A DNA stretch of 64,000 nucleotides from positions 19,598 through 83,597 of IMG/VR virus record IMGVR_UViG_3300038393_000804, one strand, 5' to 3'. Below the pieces are notes generated by a model. The model ran no database searches, was not told the DNA's origin, and saw only the letters and a program-made list of their open reading frames with translations. A program made the position numbers and the translations under genes. The stretch comes from a virus (Duplodnaviria > Heunggongvirae > Uroviricota > Caudoviricetes). Below, piece after piece: positions 33,601 through 51,177 of the stretch (position 1 is the stretch's first letter; each line of letters opens with the position of its first letter).

Positions 33601-34878
33601 TGTGATTGGTGTTGTTGGTCCATCGTTATTTGCTTTCTTATCTTCTGCTTTAAGTTCTTTGATTCTATCTCCAAGACCATAATCATCATCTGACTTACGA
33701 ATACCAGCATCTATTAACCATTGTTGCGTATCAATCCTACCTGGGTCATCATCAATGAAATGGTAGTAAGGAATAACTAGAGGAGCAGATGGAACAATTT
33801 TTGATTTTGTTGCCATCAATGTTTTACAGATGTTCTCTGCATAAACAGGTGTACCAGTGAAGAACACGTTCGGGTCTTTTTCATCTGTCTTGTAAACAGC
33901 CGCCGTCACACGTCCATATTTGTCTCGGTTAAGAATGTCATGAGTATGTCCATCTGTATCATAAATAATAGATTTAGAGTCAGCTTCTAATACGATTAAT
34001 CCGCTATTATCTCCAGATGTACCAAGCTTGCCTTTCGAAAAGTCCCACGCTTCCTTACCAATCTGGAAAGCCTGAGATGAGCTTACATTATAAGCCGCAC
34101 AATATTCGTAGTTACGTGTAACCCCTTGAGTATATCCGTGCTCAATTGTTTCAGGAGCATTGATTCCTAGGAAACGGATATTAAGGTTATCACCCTTTTT
34201 AATAGGAGGGTCATACTGATAATCTGTTCCATCTACGGTGAACATAGGAACAGCTTGAGCTACTTTCTTACCTACCGCAAGTACATGGAATCCGTCAATT
34301 GTATCACCGTCAATAACAGCTCCTAAAGCTGCTTCGCCAGTTTGTGGGTCAACATAACCATCCTCTTTTGTAGCAAGTCTACCAACGATTAACCAGTCAG
34401 ATTTATCTAGCTCTTCTTCATTTCCTGCTGTAACTCCAGTGCTTGCCCCGTTGTCTCCAGCAGTAACCTGCATCTTGAATTCACTTGCTGTAATCTCTTC
34501 GCCTTGCTCTGTGGCAATTGGAATCATATCCATTAAGCCTGTGCCAGCATTATCACTTGCATCAACAGTAGCTAGTAAGCGAAGAAGGGTAACATTTACA
34601 TCTAAATGAATTAGCTCGTCCCCATTCATTCGAGCATCAAATAGATTTGTTGTATCGTTTAAGAAATCTCTCCATGCATATTGGAATGGATAGTTATCTA
34701 CTTTGCGCTCAATGGCAGAGAGGACCCCGTCTAAACGAGGCCCCACACTTGCTCCACCATCTGTTGCGTCAATAGAGGCTCTTAACATTCTGCCGCTTGG
34801 AGCGACATAAGAGACTATCCATGGTTCACTTGTAGAACGCTTGAAGAGGGCTTGCACCCTCAGTTGTCTTGTCTCCAT
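27619..34878 (-). CDS. Giant baseplate hub fusion (2419 aa): thermonuclease (SNase) domain, tube-like domains, degenerate SLT-like domain, gp27-like hub
   Basis: VIDGDT...IRFLGINAPET...DKYGR (SNase); KAIIHVRS...AAGIMGV...YNMEVGFKFL...AYATG (SLT-like); TGARIHLRMGYG...VFNGTITE...IVAQGDG (hub). Confidence 0.75.
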   Translation of the reverse strand: METRQLRVQALFKRSTSEPWIVSYVAPSGRMLRASIDATDGGASVGPRLDGVLSAIERKVDNYPFQYAWRDFLNDTTNLFDARMNGDELIHLDVNVTLLRLLATVDASDNAGTGLMDMIPIATEQGEEITASEFKMQVTAGDNGASTGVTAGNEEELDKSDWLIVGRLATKEDGYVDPQTGEAALGAVIDGDTIDGFHVLAVGKKVAQAVPMFTVDGTDYQYDPPIKKGDNLNIRFLGINAPETIEHGYTQGVTRNYEYCAAYNVSSSQAFQIGKEAWDFSKGKLGTSGDNSGLIVLEADSKSIIYDTDGHTHDILNRDKYGRVTAAVYKTDEKDPNVFFTGTPVYAENICKTLMATKSKIVPSAPLVIPYYHFIDDDPGRIDTQQWLIDAGIRKSDDDYGLGDRIKELKAEDKKANNDGPTTPITDGYTVEVKLTESYNNQIDFIVPDDDRKEDGYGTDHRVRIGDVSLVIPPLAIEVNSTSSIQKIKTLRSKQSMMIKSGSSTTTLTLQLYFHDIDSINGHKQLMHKDLPGRFYSMDGLRPLIAQFKKAPFLPIDNVYINETLGIQSVALVNLSIQTVPGFPHSISATLVLAEFEHEAYMPQLGFLGEAINYPLLRWYYQQSMRDDIEMADRNPYRTYLEPIPDSGLTNEFKFQIVDEQDLIDRKQAMRDMRYMDDPTTAKSKFENPAAQMPTADKILNPLGSTMEDGTKNPLNSNSPDNTKLGRLYADAWAAQHVVSMYSNYLKAIENGTVKEDAEWLAKHFGMGQDTKNPAWSAIYGDKGEAYIQSVSHYAVPHSWMATTDKPDITEEDNGVIKIRLYEDSNIKRFPKQYRDNATKDGEFTVLIVPGIEIGTLQGIIDTGMEAEKEYVKEVEKYKNLQAVANETEAYFNLIDYDIPGLICTAVQVMYENQFSTVQLQELGRPTFQFLGGQDPYVQLEFEADDGAINKLKWLVDETERYAREYRTGITSGFFGVKNHLMQLFGIQTCMIENLVYRTVPGFPGRYQVSMTLCGFDKTQKRTETLEGISPVNGTPGRETREASSYNPAVDEAIIEMKMKRLEVYPDLELPTYDELNSDLQYITTGFSIYENRTGGIYVDPDFYMATPVTVRELIREKSKTEVSMSMRDMHGVEMVTSSQSPNLLDGTDEQWALLNEIDGKSSKIDPKFSWDGAVTDEKKANEQPTAKFKSKEVQDFVSNRENIKTPPTEEEFNKWGLDLQYRDYNSFIDQKNPSTVGVYTKIYSLIDKYFTGKGKLFDDTNVDVTNKAWQKVTYSTQDDMYAVNYDYVASKHPKYLTKKDSDTKKGSLSLSDYKVTGSKLPRERMANLVKAIIHVRSKWKQFFDTGMPMIDGTGNAAGIMGVPLASEAEKVEDAKRLLWDWAYNMEVGFKFLAEAWDAAVKQKDITYNAAPWDWMIYAYATGNIALGSDTGAADKGDTNSPFFNYVYTIFESYYNKYEYLYASPGTTVDVDIMSWKNGYTVHQLNLIKGNKDDMITDLLAAGYLKDKKNKADTKKWLKAQTSDDVKKIYEEYMQKKISNGNYVNGGKNNDDTYEVNPYAGLIKMPDGTDDLIDSVVAGNYGNPDWATNYTMYKQFNKYMTDANNLLFNSSPQDIFPRLFTDMIRYDQKYRLLRAFPTFQMFIIDEGRWMTNYKLWDNLYGYNAIQSIDIHKSRKIAADTAIIEMTNIYSNLTSRAMDTAYSEWDYKFWDNLVWGNPNDEILDARKELLDSMYLQTGARIHLRMGYGSSVVDLPVVFNGTITEMNTEEVVQIVAQGDGLELTNVISGDPSDTNANILVCTEPRDLICKLMTSKGNWLKDVINLKSGDKFFRDNPLGIMHFGTPGATPPGNIMWYNHDYGEAAQNIYSSNGLNTFSEYNYQDGSEIPFNIDGPIWKWGTEGDEANIIVPFYNNTTWDIAQTIAYCSPDYIAAVHPFELRSTLFFGKPYWEMAYQYDSRYEWDEKKKGWTRYRDVEHRKPFMQAHIIDGTMDIISNKLKASAEDIYTNVIVNYDGKQTPLIMADWDIRFDKQTTTVIDAQLVHKKRQGLDFFSTEQQAIYYGASALRDYMKDMYKGEILILGDPTIKPHDIIFMTDNMNDMQGNILCKAVTHHFSHETGFVSSIQPDACVVNDDKAMMAMTHWGWVLATEFAAILMAKKFGARMLRKVIPSQAISKLIKGGGKLSKETAVKTLKKHVAKLPDNDADIKKFKDLYEKYSNMADGADKDDVLKEMRNVSNGITKKVKGSFKEGTLLKDTGEVMSKSEYKAVKSAAGVIENVLKGVGGGSKVLGSFMKVGGFLLEDNIFTGIATAIFSTAAEGVAENWRRKKALIQAVMMMPVHYQGRQYTAGINGHKGMVIGDSMGKLDSYYSGLGLNAKDDDTWHEWLMQKWNDLTGANGIDYSVTEEDLEKGIYDATTNKK

Positions 34879-34889: not shown

Positions 34890-37800
34890 CTAGAAAGCAT
34901 AGCCACCTCCGATGGCTTTTGCTACAACTCCCTGCAACCAGTTCGGGTCTATGTTTTGAGTGTTGTCATTGACATTGATGTTTGTATCTAGCTTTGTATT
35001 CGTCATTGCGCCAAGCTCTTGGTGAACAATAGATGCAATTTGCTGCTCAGACATGTTCTTCACATTCTTTGCATTTACCTTGATGTTTACATATTCACCA
35101 TTGTTTTGGGTAATACGCGCTGTTGGATTTGTGTCCATTGGCGGTGCGGCTGGTGCAGGATTCTGCGTCTGTGCCTGCAATCCTTCAGGAGTAGGACCGC
35201 TACGGATGAGCGCACTTGCCGCCCACATTGCACCGAATGCCAATGCTCCTTTGCCGAATCCTCCGCCACCATGCATTAGGTTAGGAGCAAACTTTCCAAT
35301 CATAGAGGAAAGCTTCTGACTGCCCTCTTCCGCAACAGTCGCTCCACTTAATTGATGGTCGGATGGGTCAAATCCTTTACCAAGAGATTCAATCAGTGAT
35401 TGGTCTCCGCCGCCTTCTATTCTGCCATGAGTAGTAAGTAATGACCTTACCCATCTATCCTGGCCTTCCTGCATTACCTGCTTAGTATCGTCATCAGCCA
35501 ATTCCATTAGGCTGCCAACAACTTGTGTCGGAGCAATATGGTTTTCCATGCCCAACATGACGCCAGCAACTCTCTTCTGCTCTTGTCCTAGTGACTGTCC
35601 TAGCTTAAGAGAGTTATTGAAGAATCCGCCAGTACGGTTGTTCCACACTGCTACCTTCTGAATCATATCGAGAGCATTTACCATCTTCTTTTCATCTTTG
35701 AAGACTTGAATCTCTTCGTTATGTTTAATGAATTTTTCTTTATTAGCATCCGTAGGATTCATTAAAGCTTCAATCATGTCTTGAAGTTTATTGTATCGAA
35801 CATCTACGGCTTCCATCGCACGCTGTCTTGCAGTAGCCATGTGGTCGTCATTATGGAAATCTAAGTCTTTATCAAGACTAAATTGACGCTCAATCTCAGC
35901 CTCAACGCTAAATTTCTTAGCAGAGATGGAATCCTGAGAGAAGGCCGCAGTGAATTCTTCAATAGCATTACGGAAGTCAGCACCAGCTGTTTTAAATCTA
36001 CTTGCCGTGTCAGCTTTGATTTTTCCATGAGCTTCTAATGTATCCAACGTTGCCGTAGAAAGGTTTACGATTCTATCACGGGCGTTATCAATCAAACCGA
36101 CGAATTCTTTACCGAGACGAGCTTCACGAGTTTCAAGAATGTCTTCAGGATTTAAATACTTACTCTTGATTCCTTCGTTGCCGAATCTCATGAGCAAGGA
36201 CTTCTGTTCCTTCGAAAGCTCTGCGCCTTCAACACCTTGAGCCATTTGCTGTTTAACTGCTTCAGCTTCATTTACCCTCTTGGATAATTCACTAACAGTG
36301 ATGTTCATATTCTTTGCTGCATTGAACATATCGTCCTGCAAGTCTGCTAGAATTCTAGAGCCTTCAATATGGGCTAGTTCAGATTCCCTTGCATTTAATG
36401 TTTTTAACTCACCATGGATAGCCATTGCACGTTTTTCATCTGTGCTATAGTGAGCCATAACAGAGGATAAGAAGTCACCATCATAGTCGGCTTTTAGTCG
36501 GGCCGCAGTACCAACTGTTAAACGAGCAGTACGGTCAGTCGGGTCAATCGAGTCATCTATTTGAATCCTCATTGCCTGAACAGTGGACTGCTTGATTGTT
36601 GGATAACGGTTCACAAATCCATATAAACCTTTCTCGTTAACATTAGCAAGTACTTTATTGACTAATTCTTCGCCATGCAAGCCTTCCTCGTAAATGCCCA
36701 TTGCTTTGGCAGCATTAATAGTTGTTTCATTAGCGTAGCCTTTACTGTCCGTAATCATCTCTTTAAAACGGTCACGGCTGACATACAATGAACCCTCTTG
36801 GTATTTAGCTGTTCTTGACTGCGCCATCATACCGTTTCCTACGTCTTCGTAGTTGGCAAATGGGTTAACCCCTTGAATACGGAATCGACCAGCGTTGCTC
36901 ATCTTAGCAGCACCAAAGGTTTTCTGTATCCCACCATCACGAGAGTTTGACAGCATACGAGCAGCTTTGTTTTCGTACTCATCAGCAAGGTCGTTGATGC
37001 GTCCTTCTAATCGTTCGCGCATCTCATTTGCTTCACCTTCGGACAGCTTGCCGTTCATATTCATCTTGTTATACTGCTGAATATTTCTCCACAATTGCTG
37101 TTGGATAGTCTGCAGTTCCCTTGTTACAGGAATGACAGCTGTGTCGCCTTTCGTAATATCACCGAAGTCAACAAGGCGAAGGTACTTACGGGTAATTGCC
37201 TCAGAGCTTGGAAGTTCAAGTAAAGCTGTTCCTCCATTGTTCTTGAAGGCTTGAGCAAATGATACGCCGTCTTCAAACTTACCTTGAGTACGTCCAAAGT
37301 CAATAATGGTTTGTGCATACATCTGTGCTGTTCTGACTGTGTCCTTAGCGGTTACGTCTGGAATATCCTGCAGAGCATGCATAGAGATTTCGCGCACGCC
37401 ATCAGCTCTTGTGCGTCCATGTTCTCTACCGTCCACGTCGTCATCATGCCAAGAACCTGTAGCCGTTGTACGAATGATAACATCGCCCTTGTCAGGAGTT
37501 ACTTCATCAGCATACACAACAGATTTAACCAATGCCTGACCAATTCTACGCACATCTTTGCTCTGTGCTTCAGCAGATGTTTTAATATGGTCTTGCAGCC
37601 ATCCAGTAACAGCACTTCCTCTTCCAAGGATGCTATTAGCACGGGCTGTAATCATATCAACTTCTTTACGTCCATAACGCACAAGACCAGCGGAGTTTTC
37701 GTCTACAAGACCGACGCCGTTTTCCCAGTCATATACGTTTTGTCTTCCGATACCAAGATTACCGTGATGAACGACTCCACTTGCGTTATCTAGCTTAACA

Positions 37801-40800
37801 CCAGAGAACATATCTGTTCCTAAGTATTCATTCATCTTGCTTGCAAACTTGTCCATGTTCTGAGCGGTATAAGCCATCTTCGCTTGTTCGCTTCCAAGGT
37901 GCTTGTTAAGAACAATTTGACCATCCTTAATGTAGCTTAGAGACGAACCAATACCGAAGCTTTCCTGCATGATTTGATTAATGGTTTGAAGCGCATCTTC
38001 TTTTGCAATCTTACCAGCTGTTACGATGCCGCCATTATCAATCTGCCTCTTTGCTTCATCGACAGCAAGAGCAACCATTCGGCTAACCTCTGTACCATGC
38101 ATGCCTTTGCTTGTTTCAAACTGAGGCATGATAGCTTGAGTAGAGGCACTTCCAGCTAAGTCTTTGATAACTTGTCCTGGTAATAATGTAGCAGTGGCAC
38201 GGTGACCAGCTTCTGTGATGTACTTCGTAGAGTTCATGGTGTGAACCTGTTCTTCAAGGATTAACTCGCGGTTCTCTGCGTCCCAACCTTTAATCCATAC
38301 ATTGTTCGCATACCATTTATCATAGACCTGACCTTGCTTAACAACTTCCTTCATGGTCTTTGGAGTTAAGCCATCATAGACAACATTGCCATCTGCATCA
38401 TGCTCTAGAATGTCGTCTCGCACAACTTGGCTAATGGTAATCTTGCCGCCATTATTCTTGAAGCCGTTTCTCGTGTCAACGGTGCTTCCAAGGTTGGTCA
38501 GAAGTTTTGGCTGACCCTTGATTCCATTCCAGTCATCAGGACCGAAGCTCATAGTATCAAAGTTAAGCAGCTTTTCCTTCTCACTCCACAGTGCAGGGTC
38601 AAGCTTAGACATCATAAGAGTTTTGATTTCTTGCGTTAACTCTTCGCCTGGTCCGAGCTTAATTCTCTTCTCACGAGTTGTATTGAATGCTTGAGCAGAT
38701 TCTTCAGACATTAAGAACATACCGTCATAGGTTGAAATTCTTTCCGTATTCTTCACTGACCGAGCATACTTCATATACATAGCACGTTCTTCAGAACCCA
38801 CTGGAGCTTGTCGAGCCTTACGCAAGTACTCTCCTCTTAGGTCTGCGGCCCGCTGTTGCAACTGCTCATCGTTCATATAAGCAGCACGCATATTTAAGTA
38901 AGACAATTTATCTGATGTTTGATACTCTTCCATAACGCCTAGAGCGCCTTCAGATACAACGCCGCGGGTTGTCATACGTTCAATCTCTGCATCTGAGTAG
39001 CCTTGTGCTTTCAAGCTAGCTTTAACTCTTCCTCTATCAAGAGAATCATAGTTTACGGTTTTCATGATGTTCTCACGACCCATTGGGTTATACATACCGA
39101 AAGCCAGTAATTCACGAGCATCAAGGTTAGCACGTAAGTAGTTGGATACGTGAACGTCTTTTACAGAGTGCATGCCGACATTCATGCCAGTCTTCTCATT
39201 CCAGAACTTATCGGATTGACGCTGGAATACACGACGGGCATTGACTCCCATAGAGTCAACGAACAGCTCGCCATTCTTAGCTGCAAGCTCGCGCACTTCT
39301 TCTGGAGTCTTCATTCTCCATAGGTCAATACGGTTAGGGTCTTTCATCTTTGTTTCATTATAGAAAGATGTGTACCAGTCTTCTGCTGTATCAGAGATAT
39401 CAACGAGACCACTACGAACCCAGTTAGCTGCCAATGATTTGGTTTCCCATGGATTGTCGTGCCCAGTCATCGCAGAATAGCGGTTATTCATAGAAAGATT
39501 TTGCATGGCTTTCTTTGCCCTACGGTTCAAATAATCATGGACTAAAAGCATTCCATTATCTTTGCCTTCTTTTTTCGCCATGTTCTTCGCATCATTTAAC
39601 ATAGTGCGAACAGTCTTCGCATTGTATTTTAATGTGTTAACAATTTCGTCGAATCCAGTTACAAGTTCATAGCCGCCGCTACCTTGTCTTCTCGCTTTGA
39701 AACGAGCCACACGGTTCTGGCTTCCAAGTGTTAAAGAACCATCTTTCATTAACCGAGGAAGGTCAATAACGGCCACCTGATTGCTCTTCATTAAATCATT
39801 CATACTTCCATTTAATAGAGCCTCAGATACACCTTTGTCTGCCAATACCATCTGCAGTCCCTTACGCTTTCCGTCATAACGGAACTGAACGTGCATATCT
39901 TGCGAGTGGAAAGCCTGAGCCAATTCAGCCAATGAAGATTTGGACGACTTCAAGTTACGAAGGTCAATGCCATGCGCCTTATCTAATCCATTACGCTGCA
40001 TCAACATCTTAATCGCATTATCGTGAGTATTAACAAGGTCAAGAGCACCATCGCCAAATAATTCAATCGGGCCATCATGCCATTTCTTGACGAATGGCTG
40101 CGCATCATTCATTGACTTGGTAAAGATGTTTTCGAAGTGGGCTTTGAAACCTGCCTCGCTCATTCCTGCAGCCCTAGTCTTGTTGAGTCCAGTAGGGTCT
40201 TCTACAGTAACTCCACTTAAAGCTCCTTGGAGAGTAGCATTCTCTTTTGCTCTCATAACAGCATTAGAAATGTCAGTCAACATGTTGTCGAGAGATACAT
40301 CGCTACGGACATTATCCAGCGACTTATACATGGCTTCGAATTTCTTTGCGTCAAGTGCGTTATACGATTTCAATTGAATTAATAATTGTTTATAACGTGT
40401 TCTCACAGTGGCAAGGTCTGGACGGTCAGAATGGTATTTATAAAGCTGTCCATATAATGCACCGCGAACCGCATCAGCATTTGTTAAATTAAGAAGGCGA
40501 GTATCACCTGCAACAGTAAGCTCAAGAGCCTGACCTCCGTTAAGACTTCTCTCTCTTGTATTAATGCCGAACTGGGAATCAAGGTTCTTTCCGAACTCAG
40601 AAAACACCATGCTTTGAGCACGATAGCCAGAGAAATCGTCTGGTTTTGTAACAGGCATTGCTTGCTGAATCCGATTCATGAATCCTCTAATCCATGTTTC
40701 CTCTCCCTCAAGACGACCTTTCATAGTTTCAAAATCACGAACGAATTCATCTGTATTAAACTCGCTGGCATTCATGATATTCTTCTTTATGGCATCTACG

Positions 40801-42461
40801 CTTAGTCCAGCTTTTTCGCCTTCCCTCCAGATATCCAATGCCCCGTACATACGGTTAGCAAGCTGAATGCCGCCGCCAGATTCCATCGAAAACATCTTAT
40901 TCCAACGACGCATAGCACGGTCTTGATTTTGTGCTTCATGTGCATTAGCCATAGAACCCCATTTAGCATCTGTGTATTGTAGGTGTTGGTGAATAGCATT
41001 CTGCAATTCTGCTTGAGTGCTACGGAAGACAGTGTGGTGCAGGTCATCATCTTCATTATAAAGGTGAATACCGAACATCTTCTTGCCATCAATATTAATT
41101 CCGTCAAAGAAGTTTTTAATGGTGTATGTTGTATTACGATAAATAGGGTTTGGCTTCATATCGTAAGCAGAGTGGAATTTTCCATCCTTCATACGGAAGA
41201 TGCCGTCAAACTCCCCAGCATTGCTGCTGTTCATACCAGCCACGCCAAATAAGTGGTCTCCTACTTTCAGAGTTTGATTATCAAAGTATCCGTAAGCACT
41301 TCCAGCTTTATTGCCAGTACGCAACACATGAGCTGTATGCGGGTCTTTAATTAATGAATTTAATTGAGCGATGGTTGTATTAACGTCAGACAAGGCATGG
41401 TGAGACTGACCATCCTGAATACCCAAAATATCCTTCATTCGCTCTAGAGTTGTTCTGTCACCAAATCTTTCATAAGGGTCACGATATAAAGTACGGACAG
41501 CATGTAAACCATCTATTTGATTAAGAGCCATTTGGTTCTTTAATGTCTGTAAAGCTTTTCCTGCTGGACTGTTCGGATTGTGCTTGCCAACTCCATTGTT
41601 TAGGTAGTCAAGCATCATTGGCTGGTCAAAGCTATATACGTTATATCCAGCAAACTTAGTATTCATCATCCCTTTCATGAACGAGTTCATTTCTAGGATG
41701 GCATCTTCTGGAGTTGTCCCCCATTGCATTAGGTTTTCCAAACCACGTCTCATATTCGCAATCGTGCTGGAGTCTGACAAAGCCACTCCATTCATTGGGC
41801 GAAGATGACGAGATTGCTCGTTTACGCTAACAATACGTCTACCATCCTTATATTCTTCCTTAAACATTCTACTAGTGTCGCCAGCGTAGAGTGTTAAGTC
41901 GGACAAAGTACGGCGCATATCTTCTGTCAGACCCGACCATTTCTTGCTAGCAAGGTCATTAATAGCAGCATCTAGTCTTTTATATACTTCTTCATTAGGA
42001 CGTAAAAGCATAGACAAACTTTTACTTTGTTTTTCTAGTTTTCCGTTAATCATTTTTACATGTTGGAATCCGATTTCTGTAGGGGTATAAAAGTCAGCGT
42101 GAGCAGCTGTCTTTCTATTAAATGGAGTTGTACCTAAAATCTCTGTATCGTAAACTACTAAGTCTGCTCCATCTTTCATGTTCATTAGTTCCTGCATACC
42201 TTGAATGGCCTGTTGACCATATGTATGGGAAGCGTAGCCAGGTGTTACCCCGCGCCACACTCCCATATCATTAGCCATAACAGTATTTCCTGCATTCATT
42301 CGGTTGAGGACAGCAGCAGCCTTACTAGCACCGACGGAATCTCCCACGTCTTGCTTAGGAGCCGACTTACCAGGATAGCGAGAATCAAAAGCCGTATAAG
42401 AACCATCTGCATCTGCGCCATATCCGCCGTACTTTCTTACGATATGTTTATTGTCTGCCAT
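34890..42461 (-). CDS. Single-chain two-barrel (beta+beta'-like) RNA polymerase fused to an N-terminal DEDDh exonuclease; probable virion protein (2523 aa)
   Basis: Ordered motifs LLAFGMYNPMGR, NMRAAYM, YDGMFLMSEE, KLGPGEELT, KYITEAGHRAT and GLVRYGRKEV (beta-like), then KMSNAGRFRI, NRYPTIKQSTVQA and LKADYDGD (beta'-like). Exonuclease motifs YDTE, GYNVYSFD and HHALSD. Confidence 0.85.
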   Translation of the reverse strand: MADNKHIVRKYGGYGADADGSYTAFDSRYPGKSAPKQDVGDSVGASKAAAVLNRMNAGNTVMANDMGVWRGVTPGYASHTYGQQAIQGMQELMNMKDGADLVVYDTEILGTTPFNRKTAAHADFYTPTEIGFQHVKMINGKLEKQSKSLSMLLRPNEEVYKRLDAAINDLASKKWSGLTEDMRRTLSDLTLYAGDTSRMFKEEYKDGRRIVSVNEQSRHLRPMNGVALSDSSTIANMRRGLENLMQWGTTPEDAILEMNSFMKGMMNTKFAGYNVYSFDQPMMLDYLNNGVGKHNPNSPAGKALQTLKNQMALNQIDGLHAVRTLYRDPYERFGDRTTLERMKDILGIQDGQSHHALSDVNTTIAQLNSLIKDPHTAHVLRTGNKAGSAYGYFDNQTLKVGDHLFGVAGMNSSNAGEFDGIFRMKDGKFHSAYDMKPNPIYRNTTYTIKNFFDGINIDGKKMFGIHLYNEDDDLHHTVFRSTQAELQNAIHQHLQYTDAKWGSMANAHEAQNQDRAMRRWNKMFSMESGGGIQLANRMYGALDIWREGEKAGLSVDAIKKNIMNASEFNTDEFVRDFETMKGRLEGEETWIRGFMNRIQQAMPVTKPDDFSGYRAQSMVFSEFGKNLDSQFGINTRERSLNGGQALELTVAGDTRLLNLTNADAVRGALYGQLYKYHSDRPDLATVRTRYKQLLIQLKSYNALDAKKFEAMYKSLDNVRSDVSLDNMLTDISNAVMRAKENATLQGALSGVTVEDPTGLNKTRAAGMSEAGFKAHFENIFTKSMNDAQPFVKKWHDGPIELFGDGALDLVNTHDNAIKMLMQRNGLDKAHGIDLRNLKSSKSSLAELAQAFHSQDMHVQFRYDGKRKGLQMVLADKGVSEALLNGSMNDLMKSNQVAVIDLPRLMKDGSLTLGSQNRVARFKARRQGSGGYELVTGFDEIVNTLKYNAKTVRTMLNDAKNMAKKEGKDNGMLLVHDYLNRRAKKAMQNLSMNNRYSAMTGHDNPWETKSLAANWVRSGLVDISDTAEDWYTSFYNETKMKDPNRIDLWRMKTPEEVRELAAKNGELFVDSMGVNARRVFQRQSDKFWNEKTGMNVGMHSVKDVHVSNYLRANLDARELLAFGMYNPMGRENIMKTVNYDSLDRGRVKASLKAQGYSDAEIERMTTRGVVSEGALGVMEEYQTSDKLSYLNMRAAYMNDEQLQQRAADLRGEYLRKARQAPVGSEERAMYMKYARSVKNTERISTYDGMFLMSEESAQAFNTTREKRIKLGPGEELTQEIKTLMMSKLDPALWSEKEKLLNFDTMSFGPDDWNGIKGQPKLLTNLGSTVDTRNGFKNNGGKITISQVVRDDILEHDADGNVVYDGLTPKTMKEVVKQGQVYDKWYANNVWIKGWDAENRELILEEQVHTMNSTKYITEAGHRATATLLPGQVIKDLAGSASTQAIMPQFETSKGMHGTEVSRMVALAVDEAKRQIDNGGIVTAGKIAKEDALQTINQIMQESFGIGSSLSYIKDGQIVLNKHLGSEQAKMAYTAQNMDKFASKMNEYLGTDMFSGVKLDNASGVVHHGNLGIGRQNVYDWENGVGLVDENSAGLVRYGRKEVDMITARANSILGRGSAVTGWLQDHIKTSAEAQSKDVRRIGQALVKSVVYADEVTPDKGDVIIRTTATGSWHDDDVDGREHGRTRADGVREISMHALQDIPDVTAKDTVRTAQMYAQTIIDFGRTQGKFEDGVSFAQAFKNNGGTALLELPSSEAITRKYLRLVDFGDITKGDTAVIPVTRELQTIQQQLWRNIQQYNKMNMNGKLSEGEANEMRERLEGRINDLADEYENKAARMLSNSRDGGIQKTFGAAKMSNAGRFRIQGVNPFANYEDVGNGMMAQSRTAKYQEGSLYVSRDRFKEMITDSKGYANETTINAAKAMGIYEEGLHGEELVNKVLANVNEKGLYGFVNRYPTIKQSTVQAMRIQIDDSIDPTDRTARLTVGTAARLKADYDGDFLSSVMAHYSTDEKRAMAIHGELKTLNARESELAHIEGSRILADLQDDMFNAAKNMNITVSELSKRVNEAEAVKQQMAQGVEGAELSKEQKSLLMRFGNEGIKSKYLNPEDILETREARLGKEFVGLIDNARDRIVNLSTATLDTLEAHGKIKADTASRFKTAGADFRNAIEEFTAAFSQDSISAKKFSVEAEIERQFSLDKDLDFHNDDHMATARQRAMEAVDVRYNKLQDMIEALMNPTDANKEKFIKHNEEIQVFKDEKKMVNALDMIQKVAVWNNRTGGFFNNSLKLGQSLGQEQKRVAGVMLGMENHIAPTQVVGSLMELADDDTKQVMQEGQDRWVRSLLTTHGRIEGGGDQSLIESLGKGFDPSDHQLSGATVAEEGSQKLSSMIGKFAPNLMHGGGGFGKGALAFGAMWAASALIRSGPTPEGLQAQTQNPAPAAPPMDTNPTARITQNNGEYVNIKVNAKNVKNMSEQQIASIVHQELGAMTNTKLDTNINVNDNTQNIDPNWLQGVVAKAIGGGYAF

Positions 42462-42485
42462 GTTACCACCCTCTCCCCTAGGGGA

Positions 42486-45400
42486 TTAACCATTGCTAGG
42501 GCGAGCACCGCCAGCAGAGATAAGTCCACCTAGGTTATTGTTAATTTCTTGTATGATGTCATTGCTTCTATCTTTAAGGATATCCATAGCCAATCCGATT
42601 CGGTTTTCCCCTTGACCGTGAGTAGTTTCCATTGTCACGCTTACGTCATGGAGTCCTGCTCCTGCAAGAACTCTCTCGATTCGTCCTACGTCGATGGCAG
42701 CACTAATGCTATTCATTGGAAGAACATTGGCATGCGATTGCTCAGCACGCTTCTCGTCATCTCCCCAGTCGCCAAACTCTGTAAGCTCAAGACCTTCGTT
42801 CTTAATCATTTTGACTTTGTAGTTCTCCAAACTTACGTCGGCTTGCCATCCAGACCAGCCAGCGCCAGGTAGGTAATGAGTCTTGAAGTAAGAGTCAACG
42901 CTCTCCTTCTTATCAACCTTGAGTCCCCACTTTGCTTGGAAGAATCGGCGCTCATTCTTAGGAACAAGTCGAAGGATTTCTTCACGCTCAGATGGAGAAG
43001 CCTTCATGAATTCTTGGAAGAACTCTCTATCTTTGTTTGGTAATGCACGGAATATCTTTGTCATATCCCCGTTTTCATCAGCACCATACAAAGTAGATTC
43101 ATATTCCGATTTATAACGCAGAGCAAGCATTGACATTGGGCCAAGCTTACGAAGAGGTCTGTCAGCATCAATCTTGTCAAGCTCTCCTTGAATGCTGTCC
43201 AGATGCTCATCTGCTGCTTCTCTATCACCATAACCTAATTTCTTGCTCAAGGAAAGCCATTTTTTCGTGGATTCTAGGACTTTTCTCTTGCCCTTATTCT
43301 TCTGTCCACGCTCTTTATTATCCTGCATCAAGTCTTCAACATCGACGCCTTCACGGACAATAGCTTCATGTCTTGCCTTCTCATATAGGCCATGATACTT
43401 CATGTAGCGAAGCATATCGAAATACTCGTTGATGTCGCGTTCCTTACGGCGGCGCTCAGGAATCCATGTTTCATCTGGGTCTGAAGATGTTAGCTTCTTG
43501 AAGTGCTCAGAGAACACACGAATCGTAGAAGCAGCTCCACCAATGATAGCACCCACATGAGTACCCCATACCCTTGCTCCAGCTTTCGTGAACAACCATC
43601 CAATACCAGCACCTTGAGCTGCCCCAATAATAGGATTATTTGAAGCCATCTGGTCAAGCATTGGTTGAATCCAGCCGCTCCATGGCGCTGTCCAAGGTCT
43701 CCATGCTTTGCCGTAAATCTCTTGACGCTTGTACATTTCAAGAGGAGAACGTACTTGCAAGAACTTGTCTGCAATGGTTCCGACAATTGGAAGGTTAGGA
43801 AGCAGGTCATGAGTTGTCCATTCCCACATCTTACCGACAGTTATCATATCGTTGCTGTATAAGGCATTGGTAGAAGTAGCAGTTCCATCATTATGAGTAG
43901 AGGCTACATAGCGTCCACCAAGACCCATAAATCCGCCTTCCTTACGGTTAGCCAGTTTAAAGTTTAAGTTTCCTTCTACTGGATTATAGACAACTGCACG
44001 AATGGTTTGGTACGTATCATCACGAACTTGATTTAGCGGGTCAGCATCCGTTGCGATACGAAGGGTCGCGCCCTCATGCACATATTGCTGTAACCATTCT
44101 TGTGATGCTTGGTCATCAGCCTTGATGTCCACGCCAGCCAGACGGATTGGATTGAATGGATGTTCCTTCGTCATGAAGGTAGTCGCATCTATCATCCGAG
44201 TAACGTGAACCGTCTGGTAATCTACATCTGCTTTGCCTTTTGTAAACTGTCTATCATAGAAACGGTACTTCGCTTTCTTCGCTGCCGTTTGCTCACGAAT
44301 CTCTGCGTATTCTTTTTTCTCTGCGTCATCAAGCATTCCAGCGCCATTCATCTTAGAGACGATAGCCTTATAGAACTTGAATTGCTGAGAGTATGGAGCT
44401 ACATCTGATAAGATACGGTAACGGTCAAATGCGCCGTATTCACCGAATGCATCTGGGTGTAACTTATATAATGTTTCATAAGCCGCACCAGGGAGTCTCA
44501 TTTCTCCGTGTGGAACCTTCACATATGGGTCACCATGTTGGAAGTCAACGAAGTAATCCGCCCCAGGCATCCAGTAAGGCATTCTATTTCGGATTGGATT
44601 CCAGTAGTTCTTGTTCGGGTCACGAGGCAAGTAACGACGGAAAATCTCCGATAGTCCTCCACCAAGACCGCCAAGCTCATTGTCCCACCAAGCTCTTTGG
44701 TAGCTGGTCATTCGGTTGGATGTATCAAGAACCATTCCTCGTCCAGATTCATCCCAGCCAATTGCACTCTTCGATAAGAAACCGTAGATACCACCAATCT
44801 CAGTAGCACTATATACAGAGTCACGGAAGTTGCCGCCTATGCTGTACATATCGCCAATGTCATGAAGGTTCTCGATAATGTCTGGGTCACGAAGGTCTTC
44901 AAGAGATGTAACGGAGCGAATATTCTTACCAGTAACACCAAGAGCTGGTCCACCGATATCGGCCATAGCAGCGTTGACAAGGGCTATCTGTTGTCTTGAA
45001 GCACCAGTGGCACCTCTGCTACCCCTTCCGCCTCCAATGCCGTATGATACACCTCCAGCGCCTCCTCCTGAGCCTGAGCCACCGCCTGCACCCATAGGGC
45101 TTCCATCAACGGCGTAATCTGCCTCAGTAACCTCACTATCCTGAAGAAGTCCTGTTCCACCAGCAGGCATACCTTGCAAGTATCCACCCATTGCCATTTG
45201 GTCATATTGGGCTGCAATATTCGCATTCAATTCTTCTAGGTATTCACGGTGAGCTTTCCGCAGCCTGTCATCTTTCAGACGAGGCTTGAGGATTCTTCCG
45301 ACTGTATTATCAACAGCAGAACCAATGAGTGGAATCTGTTGCAGTTCACTGAATCCGCCTGTCTCTGGATAAGGACGGTCTTCCCTATGCTTATTCTCCC

Positions 45401-48400
45401 AATGATATGGGTCTAATAGGAAATGATTAAGCGGCGCAAGTGGATGAGTTAAAGTTGGGAACCAAGCATTTGCATAGTACTCATCTTCACTTCCATATAG
45501 CGTGTCGGTGAACTTGTAATCTGACCGCATCTTGCGATACCAGTTTGGTTCGTATCGGTCAATACGTCCACCAGTGTAAGGAGTTCCAGAACCAATACTC
45601 CAGAAACGTCCTTTACGGACTGGGTCTTCACCATGCTCCCAGTAGTATTGCTCGTCTTCACCAGAACGATTGTCTCCGAAGACACCGAAAGTAGCCATGT
45701 TGAATGCTCTGAAGAATGGTGTTTCTGCAAGCTGGTCAGCTCCAGTGAATACGCGAGACCATTGACGGCCTATATCATTCAGTCCAGCAAACTCTTTCAA
45801 CCACTGGACATCTGTACGCATGTTAACGTATGTGCTAGCAGCTGTATCACTTGGTTGGTCGCCAAGCACACCATCAGCCCATTGAAGCTGTTGATAAGCT
45901 ACATAAGGCATTACAATGCGTCGTAAGAATTGATTTGCTAAGATGCTTTGGAAGGAGCCACGATTCTTCTGTGACAATCCTAGCCCTACATAAGAAACCG
46001 CATTATCTAGACGTTCAGCATAGTAGTAAGGGAATAAGGTAGCAGTAGTAACATCACCAATATTCTTACGTCCAGCAAAGAACTGTCCGAATACTCCTTT
46101 AGCAGAACTGAAGACAGCGTCTAGCGCATCTCCACCTTCTGATATGGTCTTATTATAGTTCTCAAGCGCCCAGCGATAACCCTTTGCCTTGTTCATAGAT
46201 AAGTTGTTTACAAATCCAAAGTACTGAGGCGGCTCTTGTCCTGGTCCCATTGCAAGGAGAGGGTTCATATCCTTCATCGCCGCTTGCGTTGTGTGGGACA
46301 GTGCATCGCCAGGGTCTAGTACACGGTCAGTAAAGTCAGCAAGCGCAGTTGCTTTGTCCTCTGGCCTTCCCTTGTAGACATCATCCCACCATTGACGCAT
46401 TGTACTTAGGGATTCAAGGTCACGAACTTCTTTCAGAGAATCCTTGTGAAGAACACCTTCATCAATACCCTTCTGAACAAGAGAGGCAACAGTTATCTTC
46501 TGACCGTCTCCTGTCGCATGTTCCAATTGACGAAGAGCATGCATGTGGATAAGACGCTTAACGTCATCCACTTTATCAATCATTTGAGTGTCCTGCATGT
46601 CGAGTGCAGACATCCACTCAGGAACATACATAGCATTATTCGGGCGGACACGTTTATTTCTCAAGAATGCCTGTCTATCATTTGCATACTTTAACCATGT
46701 ATCATTGATGAATTTATCTAGGCCTTCCATCGTGCCGTCTGCTTTAGTAGAAATCTTCGCAATGTCAGAGTTTCTTGTCAGCATAGCCTGATTGATTTTG
46801 CCTAGAGCGTCCATCGTCTCTTCAGGTGAATAAAGCTTTGTTATATCTACGCCAATATTGCCATAAGCATTTTTAACATACTGACCAATGTAGTTGACGG
46901 TATCATCAGACAATGCAGATGACTTTGCCTCAAGCTGAGAAAACATGAGCTTGTAAACATCTTCTGGATGAAGCTCAGAACCACCTGTTTGATACTTCCA
47001 GTTATACAAGCTACTGTGAAGATTGCGTCCCCACTCAGGATTGTCAAACTTCGTGAAGGCACTAATAATACGCTTATATGAAGGTTCTGTTTCCTGTTTG
47101 CCCACATCGAATAGCTTTTGAAGAGAGCCTAGGAATCCTTCTTTATAGGTATACTCCTGTGTATGTAAGTTTGCCATACCAGCAAGAGCACGCGGCACCA
47201 TACCGAATCGCCCAGAAGCCTGATAAACATCTTGTTTAACTAGGTCACCAGTTGTTAAATCATACAAATTACCATTGGATGTCTGCATGTAGTTACGTGC
47301 TAGAACACCTACGGCTGCATCCTGGTTATGGGCATGTGGATGGGCATACTCTTTAACAGCTCCATGCAACGCAGGGTCAATTGTACCCATGTTACGGAAA
47401 GCAATCTTCGGAGCTTCCCTCATGCCTTCCCATGTAGTGAAGTGCAATAAGTCTAATGGGTTAAAACGAAGGAATGGAATCTGAACGCTTCTTCTGAAGT
47501 TATCAGCGAAGTTAACAGCTCCATGAGCCATCCATCTGTTATCAAGGAATTCCCCACGGTTGTTTATCCAAACATGGCGGTCTACAGCCAAGTCGCGGAA
47601 GCGCGGGTCCATCTCCATCATCTTATTGACTTTACTTGAAAGACGCGTATCTATATGCGGCTGACCGAATCTCTTCGGCTTACTTCTTAAGCGGAAATCA
47701 AACAGGTTTCCATTCTTGTGCATTGCAATGTCTTCAACGGTAGCAAGGCGATATCCATTGTTCGCCATAACTTTTTCATTAAAGGCATTACGTTTCTTCC
47801 TGTTCTGCGCAATGAAGTCATTCCACATATTATGTTTGTTCTTGCTTAAGGCATCACGATAGGCTTTCTTCCTGCCGCCTTCGTTGAAACCAGCTGAATG
47901 TCTGGTCTTATATCTATCTAGTGTTTCATGGACACTATCGACAAAGTCTTCACGACTCATCTTATTGGCATGAAGTTTGTCCGCAAGAGCCTTGTTATTC
48001 TCAAGAACATGGTCAACGAATGTACTTACGCTTTGATGGGATAGGTTATTCCCATGCATCCATGATGAGCCATAACCTGTTAAGTGACTTCCAAAGTCCT
48101 TCTCAAAGTTAAGCCATGAATGTTTCTGTCCCAGCTCTTGTTCAACGTAATTGATACGTTGGTTTTCAAGCACCTTATTGTGAAGCTGTGCCATCCTTGT
48201 GCGGAGTTCTTCTACCTGCGTTTCAAACTCTAGGTCGTGTCCTCCGAACGGAACGCCAGCCATCCGTCCCCTAGCCTCAATAGAATGCTGAAGGGATTGC
48301 TGGAATCTATCTTCGAATCTACTAGGGTTTCCCATATGAGAGAAGATGCTTCGACCATCCATCGCGTGATTCAATGCTTTACCGAATGCACCTATATCTT

Positions 48401-48632
48401 CTATTGTATCCTTGAACTTAGCATTACGGGCTAAAGCACTAATCCCCATGCTGCCAATTGTTCCAGTGAATTCTCCAACAGAACGTAATCCTGACCCTAT
48501 TTGACTACGGTATCGCCAGCCAAGAGCACCTGCTCCAATAACACCAGCGACTCCAACAGCCATTCCAAGACCTGAGTGGTGCTGCGGGCCTTGTTGTTCA
48601 TCATATTGTCTTATTTGTCTTTCGTCAGCCAC
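42486..48632 (-). CDS. Tape-measure-like or ejected protein (2048 aa) with hydrophobic segments, a Gly-rich linker and a degenerate SNase-like domain
   Basis: First gene after the tail chaperones (canonical TMP slot). N-terminal GLGMAVGVAGVIGAGALGW, later IIGAAQGAGIGWLF...VGAIIGGAAS; VTRMIDATTF...IRLAGVD. Confidence 0.6.
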   Translation of the reverse strand: MADERQIRQYDEQQGPQHHSGLGMAVGVAGVIGAGALGWRYRSQIGSGLRSVGEFTGTIGSMGISALARNAKFKDTIEDIGAFGKALNHAMDGRSIFSHMGNPSRFEDRFQQSLQHSIEARGRMAGVPFGGHDLEFETQVEELRTRMAQLHNKVLENQRINYVEQELGQKHSWLNFEKDFGSHLTGYGSSWMHGNNLSHQSVSTFVDHVLENNKALADKLHANKMSREDFVDSVHETLDRYKTRHSAGFNEGGRKKAYRDALSKNKHNMWNDFIAQNRKKRNAFNEKVMANNGYRLATVEDIAMHKNGNLFDFRLRSKPKRFGQPHIDTRLSSKVNKMMEMDPRFRDLAVDRHVWINNRGEFLDNRWMAHGAVNFADNFRRSVQIPFLRFNPLDLLHFTTWEGMREAPKIAFRNMGTIDPALHGAVKEYAHPHAHNQDAAVGVLARNYMQTSNGNLYDLTTGDLVKQDVYQASGRFGMVPRALAGMANLHTQEYTYKEGFLGSLQKLFDVGKQETEPSYKRIISAFTKFDNPEWGRNLHSSLYNWKYQTGGSELHPEDVYKLMFSQLEAKSSALSDDTVNYIGQYVKNAYGNIGVDITKLYSPEETMDALGKINQAMLTRNSDIAKISTKADGTMEGLDKFINDTWLKYANDRQAFLRNKRVRPNNAMYVPEWMSALDMQDTQMIDKVDDVKRLIHMHALRQLEHATGDGQKITVASLVQKGIDEGVLHKDSLKEVRDLESLSTMRQWWDDVYKGRPEDKATALADFTDRVLDPGDALSHTTQAAMKDMNPLLAMGPGQEPPQYFGFVNNLSMNKAKGYRWALENYNKTISEGGDALDAVFSSAKGVFGQFFAGRKNIGDVTTATLFPYYYAERLDNAVSYVGLGLSQKNRGSFQSILANQFLRRIVMPYVAYQQLQWADGVLGDQPSDTAASTYVNMRTDVQWLKEFAGLNDIGRQWSRVFTGADQLAETPFFRAFNMATFGVFGDNRSGEDEQYYWEHGEDPVRKGRFWSIGSGTPYTGGRIDRYEPNWYRKMRSDYKFTDTLYGSEDEYYANAWFPTLTHPLAPLNHFLLDPYHWENKHREDRPYPETGGFSELQQIPLIGSAVDNTVGRILKPRLKDDRLRKAHREYLEELNANIAAQYDQMAMGGYLQGMPAGGTGLLQDSEVTEADYAVDGSPMGAGGGSGSGGGAGGVSYGIGGGRGSRGATGASRQQIALVNAAMADIGGPALGVTGKNIRSVTSLEDLRDPDIIENLHDIGDMYSIGGNFRDSVYSATEIGGIYGFLSKSAIGWDESGRGMVLDTSNRMTSYQRAWWDNELGGLGGGLSEIFRRYLPRDPNKNYWNPIRNRMPYWMPGADYFVDFQHGDPYVKVPHGEMRLPGAAYETLYKLHPDAFGEYGAFDRYRILSDVAPYSQQFKFYKAIVSKMNGAGMLDDAEKKEYAEIREQTAAKKAKYRFYDRQFTKGKADVDYQTVHVTRMIDATTFMTKEHPFNPIRLAGVDIKADDQASQEWLQQYVHEGATLRIATDADPLNQVRDDTYQTIRAVVYNPVEGNLNFKLANRKEGGFMGLGGRYVASTHNDGTATSTNALYSNDMITVGKMWEWTTHDLLPNLPIVGTIADKFLQVRSPLEMYKRQEIYGKAWRPWTAPWSGWIQPMLDQMASNNPIIGAAQGAGIGWLFTKAGARVWGTHVGAIIGGAASTIRVFSEHFKKLTSSDPDETWIPERRRKERDINEYFDMLRYMKYHGLYEKARHEAIVREGVDVEDLMQDNKERGQKNKGKRKVLESTKKWLSLSKKLGYGDREAADEHLDSIQGELDKIDADRPLRKLGPMSMLALRYKSEYESTLYGADENGDMTKIFRALPNKDREFFQEFMKASPSEREEILRLVPKNERRFFQAKWGLKVDKKESVDSYFKTHYLPGAGWSGWQADVSLENYKVKMIKNEGLELTEFGDWGDDEKRAEQSHANVLPMNSISAAIDVGRIERVLAGAGLHDVSVTMETTHGQGENRIGLAMDILKDRSNDIIQEINNNLGGLISAGGARPSNG

Positions 48633-48646: not shown

Positions 48647-49195
48647 TTATCCCATTGGAGGAAACCCTGGAGCTTGGTTCTGTTGTTCCTCCCTTTGAAT
48701 AGTTACTCCTCTTAAGTTCTCTAATGTCCATTTGGCTCTTGAGTAATACCACAACATCTTCTCAAACTGCCAATTCTCTATCTCTTCAAGAGAGATGTCT
48801 GGGAATGCTTCCTTGATAATGCATGAAATCTGATTATCGAATGTCTGCATATCCATTTCTAGTTTTAGTATTTTTGCGTCAAGCTCTTTTATTGTGAGCG
48901 TGAATCCAGATTCTTTCAGAATATTCTCTGTCAATGTCTCTGGAATACCAGCGTACATTTCTTCGCCCCAGTCATCTATCTCTGGGAATAGAACGCAACA
49001 GCGGCAAACATATTCAGCACGGTCAAAGTCATCTTCATACCATTCCATTGCCTTCTTATATTCTGCCCTTGTCATTCCACGCCAGATGAATGCCATGTCC
49101 TCAATCTCCGTAGAGTAGACATTGCCATAGAACTCTTCTTTCCAATGCTCTATCATCAACTTAAACTGTTCATCCATTAAGACTTCTTCGTTCAT
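48647..49195 (-). CDS. Tail assembly chaperone paralog with a C-terminal extension (gpGT-like)
   Basis: FIWRGMTRAEYKKAM...VCRCCVLFP...GIPETLTENILKESGF aligns with the upstream gene; extra C-terminal FPDISLEEIENWQFEKMLWYY. Confidence 0.7.
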   Translation of the reverse strand: MNEEVLMDEQFKLMIEHWKEEFYGNVYSTEIEDMAFIWRGMTRAEYKKAMEWYEDDFDRAEYVCRCCVLFPEIDDWGEEMYAGIPETLTENILKESGFTLTIKELDAKILKLEMDMQTFDNQISCIIKEAFPDISLEEIENWQFEKMLWYYSRAKWTLENLRGVTIQREEQQNQAPGFPPMG

Positions 49196-49258: not shown

Positions 49259-49735
49259 TTAGAGTTTCATAGCTCCAGTCTTAGCTTGGAAGCCTGACTT
49301 CTCCATGATTAATTCAGCAAGTAGAGTTGGGATACCAGCTTTACCAGCAGTCATTGCCATGAAGTTATATCCTTGTGGATAAAGGATACATGCTTCGCAG
49401 ATACGCTCTTCTTTATAGAAAGAATCCGCATTTTGTACCTTCATTACTTGCTTGTATTCTTTACGAGTAATCGGTCTCCATAAGAAAACTTCTTCCTCGA
49501 ATTCTGTTAAATAAACTTCGTCTTTGAAACGAGATTTCCACTCTTCAACTTGCGCAAGAGCAGGGCCACCTGGGAATAAAAGCTCTTCTCCGTTTGGTCC
49601 AAGCAATTCCTGTGGAATAGAAGTTTCTGGAGCCTCTGGAGCAGCAGGTGCTTCTGGTGCTGGCACTGAGCTTTCTACTTCTTGTTCTTCCATTGCTTCT
49701 ACTACTTCTTCTTTAACAGTTTTCTTTGTAGCCAT
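49259..49735 (-). CDS. Tail assembly chaperone (gpG-like, 158 aa)
   Basis: Between the tube genes and the TMP-like gene; FLWRPITRKEYKQVM...ICEACILYP...GIPTLLAELIMEKSGF. Confidence 0.75.
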   Translation of the reverse strand: MATKKTVKEEVVEAMEEQEVESSVPAPEAPAAPEAPETSIPQELLGPNGEELLFPGGPALAQVEEWKSRFKDEVYLTEFEEEVFLWRPITRKEYKQVMKVQNADSFYKEERICEACILYPQGYNFMAMTAGKAGIPTLLAELIMEKSGFQAKTGAMKL

Positions 49736-50532: not shown

Positions 50533-50550
50533 AGCCTTTACCTCCTATCC

Positions 50551-51132: not shown

Positions 51133-51151
51133 ATTGTTTACCTCCTAATAG

Positions 51152-51177
51152 TAATAAAGGGCCGCCGAAGCGACCCC
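51152..51177 (-). terminator. Intrinsic terminator after the major tube gene
   Basis: GGGTCGC-TTCG-GCGGCCC followed by TTTATT. Confidence 0.75.

Follow-up and report, generated by a model that had tools for sequence, protein, structure and literature searches.

Why would a giant gene among the tail genes of a phage begin as a nuclease and continue as an RNA polymerase (RNAP)? The question is raised by a stretch of 64,000 nucleotides (nt), hereafter the window, which covers positions 19,598 to 83,597 of the IMG/VR record IMGVR_UViG_3300038393_000804, a viral record (Caudoviricetes) of 194 kb that is about 86% complete. On the minus strand of the window, at 34890-42461, the open reading frame (ORF) list and its translation give an ORF of 7572 nt that encodes 2523 amino acids (aa) and is called P0001 here; all features of the window described below lie on this strand. 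An initial annotation, made from the sequence alone, had placed at 41370-42170 an intact DEDDh 3'-5' exonuclease fused to the N terminus of an RNAP, and had named transcript proofreading or 3' trimming, processing of the incoming genome end, and degradation of host nucleic acids or signaling oligonucleotides as its possible roles. In our analysis the protein comprises, from N to C terminus, the exonuclease, a conserved region without assignment, an RNAP core with beta-like and beta-prime-like halves, and a tape-measure-like C terminus, and we hold this identity and architecture of the exonuclease-RNAP fusion with high confidence. The insertion within the exonuclease, the tape-measure position of the gene and the shared tape-measure-like C terminus, all described below, are absent from the initial annotation, which made no choice among its possible roles.

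A putative DEDDh exonuclease domain at the N terminus

The identity proposed for the N-terminal domain was borne out by its motifs, their conservation and the predicted fold, and the presence within the first ~390 residues of a DEDDh (DnaQ/RNase T-type) 3'-5' exonuclease domain with intact catalytic residues is strongly supported by sequence and model together. D105, E107, D279, H354 and D359, the residues named in the initial annotation, are correct in the translation, and all three motifs fall within 41370-42170. ExoI (LVVYDTEI, residues 101-108, 42138-42161) places the D-x-E of D105 and E107 on a strand predicted at residues 100-110; ExoII (GYNVYSFDQPM, residues 272-282, 41616-41648) holds an N-x4-D (N274 and D279 in NVYSFD) at the start of a predicted helix, 275-290; and ExoIII (SHHALSDV, residues 353-360, 41382-41405) holds an H-x4-D (H354 and D359 in HHALSD) at the start of another, 356-372. 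The ExoIII spacing assigns the domain to the DEDDh and not to the DEDDy subclass, and the spacing of the motifs, with Asn274 in the ExoII N-x4-D, agrees with the family consensus.

The AlphaFold2 (AF2) model of the exonuclease, built on 19 homologues, has predicted local distance difference test (pLDDT) values that are mostly 80-94 across residues 85-330 and somewhat lower to 390; this model, Foldseek and VIA-align delimit the domain to residues ~85-390 (41292-42209). Its secondary structure follows the DnaQ order: it begins with three strands and a helix, then passes through an insertion and one more strand to the ExoII helix and, further on, to the ExoIII helix. Foldseek matched it with probability 1.0 to RNase T (E 7e-5), Pol III epsilon, oligoribonuclease, PARN/PNLDC1 and the DinG exonuclease domain. 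In VIA-align the best 50 entries, for model residues 98-381, were all DEDDh enzymes (Z 12.8-14.3), among them exonuclease I (Exo I, Z 14.3) and Pol III epsilon (Z 13.8, root-mean-square deviation (rmsd) 2.8 Å, 172 of 176 residues aligned); TREX1/2, ERI1, Orn, REXO2, the PolC exonuclease and Cap18 are also structural neighbors of the model. A DEDDh fold, on whose prediction the initial annotation had made its claim depend, is what AF2, Foldseek and VIA-align all return. About 100 model residues between ExoI and ExoII did not align to canonical DEDDh domains. In this interval lies an insertion of ~80 aa (residues ~172-250, 41712-41948), delimited by the missing alignment and by conservation, which contains RRTLSDLTLYAG and in which R184, L189 and Y192 are conserved in at least 90% of the family.

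Among sequence profiles, phrog_192 ('DNA polymerase exonuclease subunit') of the PHROGs database matches the exonuclease region at E 6.6e-7. The Pfam family PF00929 (RNase_T) scores 12.4 bits in the genome itself, below its gathering cut-off of 24 bits, and for this reason the domain is placed in the superfamily by its motifs and fold and not by the Pfam model. A transitive link to canonical RNase T-like enzymes is provided by the metagenomic protein P0086 (875 aa), since its C-terminal domain matches both the exonuclease-family profile (E 3.4e-6) and PF00929 (33.3 bits). P0086 could also link the exonuclease domain to its cellular or phage source. Sequence searches of the PDB with the full-length protein and with profiles of the exonuclease and of the RNAP core returned nothing meaningful.

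The catalytic residues are invariant across the family

A word-indexed search found 18 full-length homologues with N-terminal identities of 39-82%, and in 19 close homologues the five residues D105, E107, D279, H354 and D359 do not vary. When 1.84 billion representative proteins were searched with a profile, 76 clusters came back, nearly all of 2200-2600 aa and with the domain at the N terminus. The survey of orthologs suggested in the initial annotation was run on the giant homologues (2200-2600 aa): 83 of 83 keep the domain, with no change at any of the five catalytic residues, while identity falls to the detection limit and the flanks of the motifs vary freely. Conserved in at least 90% of the family are D105, E107, G110, R184, L189, Y192, G240, N274, D279, H354, D359, G401, D514 and R518, a pattern in which few parts of the protein are as constrained as the exonuclease and its insertion. 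The conservation across the 83 proteins was obtained with hmmalign to the 19-sequence profile, in which about a quarter of the sequences are under-aligned in the C-terminal half.

This conservation bears on the reading in which the domain has kept its fold but lost catalysis, as a silent module of structure or assembly that serves, for example, as a plug or helps packaging or folding. A sequence too diverged for the PF00929 model, a large insertion and flanks without assigned function would all suit such a module; however, the four acidic residues and the general-base His are invariant in every one of the 83 proteins, which is expected only under selection for catalysis, and we find a silent module scarcely credible.

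Free-standing copies of the exonuclease are essentially absent from the 1.84 billion representatives covered by the profile search. Two apparent split-gene variants were rejected: P0058 is a fragment cut short by a contig end, and P0032, which stops 142 nt from the end of its contig, probably carries a frameshift. In phage records megablast gave no match and tblastn found KLEB27-3, WH1 and Edson only, and a pattern scan of 185,579 prokaryote genomes found no relative, the patterns being narrow enough that absence is not implied. Within the 194-kb record, the sole PF00929-like and PF00623-like matches fall in the ORF at 34890-42461.

The same polypeptide carries a two-barrel RNAP core

The fusion to an RNAP was likewise confirmed: the chain that begins with the exonuclease carries a beta-like and a beta-prime-like two-barrel core, which spans residues ~1136-2230. 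The beta-prime-like double-psi beta-barrel (residues ~1860-2005, 36447-36884) was recognized by PF00623, phrog_2987 and Foldseek. PF00623 (Rpb1 domain 2) matches residues 1944-1998 of P0001 weakly and is found in 16 of 19 homologues (best E 5.9e-6), and phrog_2987 ('RNA polymerase beta subunit') matches at E 1.8e-6. NRYPTI (1951-1956), followed by a Q and by the catalytic DYDGD (residues 1992-1996, 36474-36488), makes up the beta-prime pattern. The RNAP Asp triad in this motif, ~1900 residues C-terminal of the exonuclease, is present in 83 of 83 homologues, and D.DGD in 79 of them.

The structural model of the polymerase, which covers residues 1080-2230, matched RNAP chains only among the entries listed by Foldseek and VIA-align. 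Foldseek returned the beta-prime of the AR9 non-virion RNAP (E 5.8e-5), the largest subunits of Pol I and Pol III and bacterial beta-prime, and also archaeal Rpo2 and vaccinia Rpo132. For the beta-like half (residues 1136-1578, 37728-39056), VIA-align gave an alignment with residues 687-1239 of E. coli beta (Z 12.6, rmsd 4.0 Å, 266 residues), and its best 50 entries were all second-largest RNAP subunits. Of the conserved K/R residues, K1413/R1421 or R1598/K1599 are candidates for the active-site basic pair that a beta-type barrel supplies. As judged from the profiles and the model, the RNAP core is a single-chain fusion of beta and beta-prime. PF05183, the profile for the YonO and RNA-dependent RNA polymerase (RdRP) type, gave no match in the genome, yet control genomes were equally silent.

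A two-barrel polymerase joined to an exonuclease could also be read as a primase or replicative initiator, or as a PolD-like DNA polymerase, with the exonuclease proofreading the product or trimming RNA primers. Archaeal PolD, a two-barrel polymerase with a proofreading exonuclease as its partner, is a precedent (PMC7281927). The best structural matches, however, are all beta or beta-prime chains of RNAPs, the NRxPT...DxDGD pattern and the PF00623 matches are of the RNAP beta-prime type, and the gene lies in a tail module, not in a replication module; a replicative role appears very improbable. PolD, QDE-1 and the phage RNAPs P23-45 gp96 and phi14:2 gp66 are absent from the 50 Foldseek and VIA-align matches listed for the RNAP model, which does not imply a difference in fold.

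Between the exonuclease and the polymerase lies a conserved region without a fold match (residues ~400-1080, ~680 aa, 39222-41264), delimited by the conservation profile. No match to it was found in Pfam, the PDB or the ESM Atlas (Atlas query 385-1080). It is well conserved, with G401, D514 and R518 kept in at least 90% of the 83 proteins.

Predicted docking of the exonuclease on the polymerase

If the two enzymes share a chain, do they also work together? Complex prediction was run on residues 85-400 against residues 1380-2060 of P0001, two pieces of one chain, with alignments of our own, and gave a docking score of 0.65, the best of three controls reaching 0.00. The 0.65 mark is reached by 58 of 80 solved complexes and by 2 of 110 mismatched pairs, a calibration that is rough here since our own alignments were used. 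The docking runs share at least 81% of their contacts, and the partners have a pLDDT of at least 75. On the exonuclease side the predicted interface comprises residues 118-120, 174-183 and 218-233 (insertion); on the polymerase side it comprises residues 1665-1678, 1693-1695, 1751-1753 and 1797-1815 of the inter-barrel connector (residues 1665-1815, 37017-37469), the predicted docking site of the insertion. Both sides are rich in invariant residues, which in the connector are T1665, S1693, M1694, P1751 and Y1797. The model supports binding of the exonuclease to the connector, short of showing it, and we know of no similar solved complex. Helices 1778-1837 may correspond to the beta-prime clamp helices, to judge from their spacing to DYDGD and from a helix-hairpin prediction; in cellular enzymes the beta-prime clamp helices are the binding place of sigma and NusG/Spt5.

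The predicted dock bears on a reading in which the polymerase is only a delivery vehicle and the exonuclease an injected nuclease acting in trans on host or defense nucleic acids, be they host RNA or DNA, retron or CRISPR RNAs, or linear signaling oligonucleotides. Ejected phage proteins often have host-takeover or anti-defense activities, and the structural neighbors of the domain include oligoribonuclease (Orn, REXO2) and Cap18. In addition, a staphylococcal-nuclease-type domain reported in the hub of this lineage (Hardies et al. 2007, PMC2147016) suggests a nuclease-cargo theme. Against these stand the considerations that the exonuclease domain is essentially never separate from the polymerase, that its family-specific insertion is predicted to dock there, that few molecules per virion make a small dose for bulk degradation, and that DEDDh enzymes require a free 3' end, so that cyclic signals would not be opened; we take action in trans to be quite unlikely. 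Action in cis is favored because the domain essentially never occurs alone and because of its predicted dock on the polymerase, and the predicted clamping of the insertion onto the connector means that the exonuclease probably works in cis. We consider it fairly probable that the exonuclease acts in cis on a 3' end, of RNA or of DNA, bound by the polymerase.

A gene in the tape-measure slot of a jumbo phage

The genes around P0001 follow the order tail sheath, three tube paralogues, two chaperone paralogues, a giant of 2048 aa, the exonuclease-RNAP gene and a hub of 2419 aa. An equivalent order is found in the Bacillus phages KLEB27-3 and WH1, in which the homologue has been deposited as 'virion structural protein' or 'structural protein', and in a very distant metagenomic member of the family (P0080). 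There is strong support for placing the exonuclease-RNAP gene at the tape-measure position, in a jumbo phage with a contractile tail of the 0305phi8-36/KLEB27-3/WH1 kind. Its ATG start codon (42461-42459) is preceded, 4 nt to the 5' side, by the Shine-Dalgarno sequence GGGGAGAGGGTGG (42466-42478), and it lies 24 nt after the stop codon of the upstream 2048-aa gene; the strong Shine-Dalgarno sequence and this spacing argue that 34890-42461 is a separate gene.

The C-terminal module (residues ~2380-2523, 34893-35324) consists of a Gly/Ala-rich, moderately hydrophobic segment, 2405-2419, and a terminal domain. The hidden Markov model (HMM) of the C termini of the family matches residues 2380-2533 of gp146 of phage 0305phi8-36 at E 1e-8, and blastp finds the likeness at E 0.013 and 0.001. 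gp146, a 'hypothetical tape measure protein' of 2537 aa (EF583821), was detected by mass spectrometry in virions (Hardies et al. 2007, PMC2147016).

What would a polymerase do in this place? By analogy with P23-45 gp96, the protein would travel in the tail or virion and be ejected together with the DNA, and the ejected polymerase would start transcription of the earliest phage genes independently of that of the host. The exonuclease of such a protein might work on the DNA it travels with, at an end or a nick, where it would chew the 3' end to give a single-stranded template or promoter, or to expose terminal repeats for annealing. This assumes a protein extended in the tail with its C terminus at the hub, which would place the exonuclease nearest the leading genome end. 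The N-terminal position of the exonuclease and the resemblance of the C-terminal module to that of a tape measure are in keeping with it, as are the DNA exonucleases Exo I, Pol III epsilon and TREX1/2 among the closest structural neighbors, the 6.5-kb terminal repeats of 0305phi8-36, and the finding that the single-chain virion RNAP gp66 of phi14:2 is efficient on single-stranded or denatured DNA but transcribes double-stranded DNA poorly (bioRxiv 10.1101/2020.03.07.982082). The orientation of the protein in the tail, however, is an assumption, and the genomes of relatives speak against one form of this reading. In 0305phi8-36 and KLEB27-3 the genes at both deposited linear ends, which are presumed to be the physical ends, point inward, with structural genes on the left and many small, presumably early genes on the right. 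Inward genes put the 3' end of the template strand at the terminus, so that a 3'-5' exonuclease starting there would remove the template, not expose it. Of the processing of the incoming genome end that the initial annotation had listed among possible roles, the version in which the leading terminus is resected to expose the template is thus weakened; DNA-end or nick processing taken as a whole we regard as unlikely, yet deserving of weight. The inward orientation also bears on which strand an injected polymerase must read first.

A possible role in trimming the nascent transcript

The reading that we prefer is that the exonuclease acts on the RNA made by the polymerase to which it is fused. 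The ~80-aa insertion would clamp the exonuclease onto the connector between the polymerase barrels, and the exonuclease would trim the 3' end of the nascent RNA, removing misincorporated or backtracked nucleotides. Such trimming would take the place of Gre/TFIIS-type factors and free arrested complexes, and arrest would doom an infection that a few injected polymerases have to start, perhaps while also helping to draw the genome in. Polymerase-linked DEDD exonucleases, namely those of Pol III epsilon, PolC, family A and B DNA polymerases and coronavirus nsp14, edit the nascent 3' end. To our knowledge, editing of the growing 3' end is what all other DEDD domains attached to a polymerase do, and it is for this reason, together with the constant fusion, the predicted dock and the cost of arrest, that nascent RNA is favored. 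RNA as the substrate is nonetheless a claim to which we give somewhat less than an even chance; for the overall explanation, made up of the architecture, delivery and the trimming of RNA in cis, we see the chances as about even.

Several points weigh against it. The docking was predicted for separate pieces of a single chain and with our own alignments, and the models are of moderate overall confidence, with a mean pLDDT of 66 for the exonuclease and 67 for the RNAP. In cellular RNAPs the backtracked 3' end of the RNA exits via the secondary channel; the predicted dock is on the inter-barrel connector and not at that channel, a modeled geometry that does not obviously favor RNA editing. Fidelity itself should matter little for an enzyme that transcribes few early genes. 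Finally, Pfam gives nothing relevant in residues 1-450 of P0001; PF00929 has no hit there at E<=1, and it matches 9 of the 19 homologues weakly (best E 0.0028), with all 19 below the cut-off.

Neighboring genes in the tail module

The giant upstream of the exonuclease-RNAP gene (42486-48632, 2048 aa) has the position of 0305phi8-36 gp145 and no PHROG match. In WH1 and the distant member the exonuclease-RNAP gene likewise follows a giant of similar size; in KLEB27-3 smaller structural genes of 1340 and 677 aa are found there. The hub (27619-34878, 2419 aa) matches phrog_20474 ('endolysin') at E 1.4e-210 over residues 888-2367. A staphylococcal-nuclease-type N-terminal domain has been described in the BtI1 homologue of the hub (Hardies et al. 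2007, PMC2147016), and such a domain, if present here, would be a second nuclease in the tail-tip region. The adjacent small paralogues at 48647-49195 and 49259-49735 both match phrog_29362 and phrog_29368, and the pair fits two-gene, non-frameshifting tail chaperones as in 0305phi8-36 gp143/gp144. At 49759-51790, three paralogous ORFs of 257, 193 and 201 aa match phrog_9206 ('major head protein'); by position and by the annotation of KLEB27-3 and 0305phi8-36 they are tail tube paralogues, and the PHROG label appears misleading.

Novelty and meaning

So far as is known, two-barrel RNAPs rely on their own active site alone for correction and rescue, with Gre/TFIIS-type factors as helpers. Here an exonuclease is always fused to such a polymerase, is intact in at least 83 diverged lineages, and is predicted to be docked on it. 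If the RNA-editing explanation is true, this would be a new route to transcriptional proofreading; if DNA processing is true, it would be a new step in template access by injected polymerases. The tape-measure slot of the Bacillus-type jumbo phage lineage also needs rereading, as the homologues in KLEB27-3, WH1, Edson and many metagenomic relatives are annotated as structural or hypothetical only. Since KLEB27-3 and WH1 can be grown on laboratory Bacillus strains, the question is directly testable.

In the literature, searched as full text with incomplete coverage, we found neither the fusion of an exonuclease to a two-barrel RNAP described nor an RNAP in the tape-measure slot of KLEB27-3/WH1-type phages. 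These phages are also not included in the table of two-barrel RNAPs surveyed by Chaban et al. 2024 (PMC10770324). The impression of the initial annotation that the fusion had not been described agrees with both. The protein would belong to a known kind, the virion- or tail-delivered RNAPs, to whose two-barrel members it adds a third, independent family; what is new is the added exonuclease module, unprecedented in the literature covered.

Comparison with known systems

The closest parallel in delivery is P23-45 gp96, a virion two-barrel RNAP fused to a tape measure, which is thought to be ejected with the DNA and to transcribe pre-early genes (Chaban et al. 2024, PMC10770324). Both are single-chain two-barrel RNAPs with a DxDGD motif in a giant protein at the tape-measure slot of a long-tailed phage. 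gp96, however, has its RNAP at the N terminus and a metallopeptidase domain, is clamp-less and belongs to a siphovirus, and an exonuclease is unmentioned in PMC10770324, whereas the protein described here runs from exonuclease through unassigned region and RNAP to a short tape-measure-like end, in a myovirus. Membership in the gp96 family was rejected, as the domain order differs and neither the single sequence nor the profile matches any PDB chain. With phi14:2 gp66 (6VR4) it shares the form of a giant single-chain two-barrel RNAP (~2200 aa in gp66) with large flanks of no assigned function, and probably also delivery with the virion. gp66 is nevertheless of the RdRP/QDE-1 type and head-packaged in a podovirus, and its description mentions no exonuclease (bioRxiv 10.1101/2020.03.07.982082); here the best structural matches are the beta and beta-prime of multisubunit RNAPs. 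Among these, the AR9 and PhiKZ RNAPs (7S00, 7S01, 8QUE) provide the best Foldseek match to beta-prime (E 5.8e-5) and a match to the beta-like half at Z 12.1, but they consist of four or five polypeptides and have no fused exonuclease, whereas here both barrels are in one chain.

Within its own slot the protein compares with 0305phi8-36 gp146, which lies in the equal gene order (chaperones, gp145, gp146, hub gp147), has nearly the same length (2537 versus 2523 aa) and is homologous in the C-terminal ~150 residues. gp146 has no DEDDh motifs and no DxDGD, and the family profile matches it only at the C terminus; it was therefore rejected as a full-length homologue, catalytic motifs being absent and only the C-terminal ~150 aa matching. 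From their sequences, two different giants with a common C-terminal module seem to alternate at the tape-measure slot. 0305phi8-36 has a separate YonO-like RNAP, gp99, in place of the fused one.

On the side of the nucleases, the known DEDDh enzymes (Pol III epsilon 2GUI/1J53, Exo I 4JS4, RNase T 3NH0, TREX1/2, ERI1/3'hExo, the PolC exonuclease) share with the N-terminal domain the three motifs, the H-x4-D and the predicted fold. The domain differs from them in its identity of 11-19%, in having ~80 aa inserted between ExoI and ExoII that carry an invariant motif of their own, in scoring below the PF00929 cut-off, and in being joined to an RNA polymerase instead of a DNA polymerase. A similar pairing exists in RNA viruses. 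The coronavirus nsp14 ExoN is a DEDDh exonuclease dedicated to the nsp12 RNA polymerase, a functional analogy for the RNA-editing explanation; nsp14 is a separate protein and nsp12 a right-hand RdRp that copies RNA, and no homology is implied beyond the DEDDh fold. We suggest, tentatively and as less likely than not, that P0001 may be the first two-barrel DNA-dependent RNAP with a dedicated, docked DEDDh exonuclease, a built-in transcript-editing and anti-arrest nuclease that would replace Gre/TFIIS-type factors in an enzyme delivered by the tail from the tape-measure slot, and thus the DNA-phage counterpart of the coronavirus nsp14-polymerase pairing.

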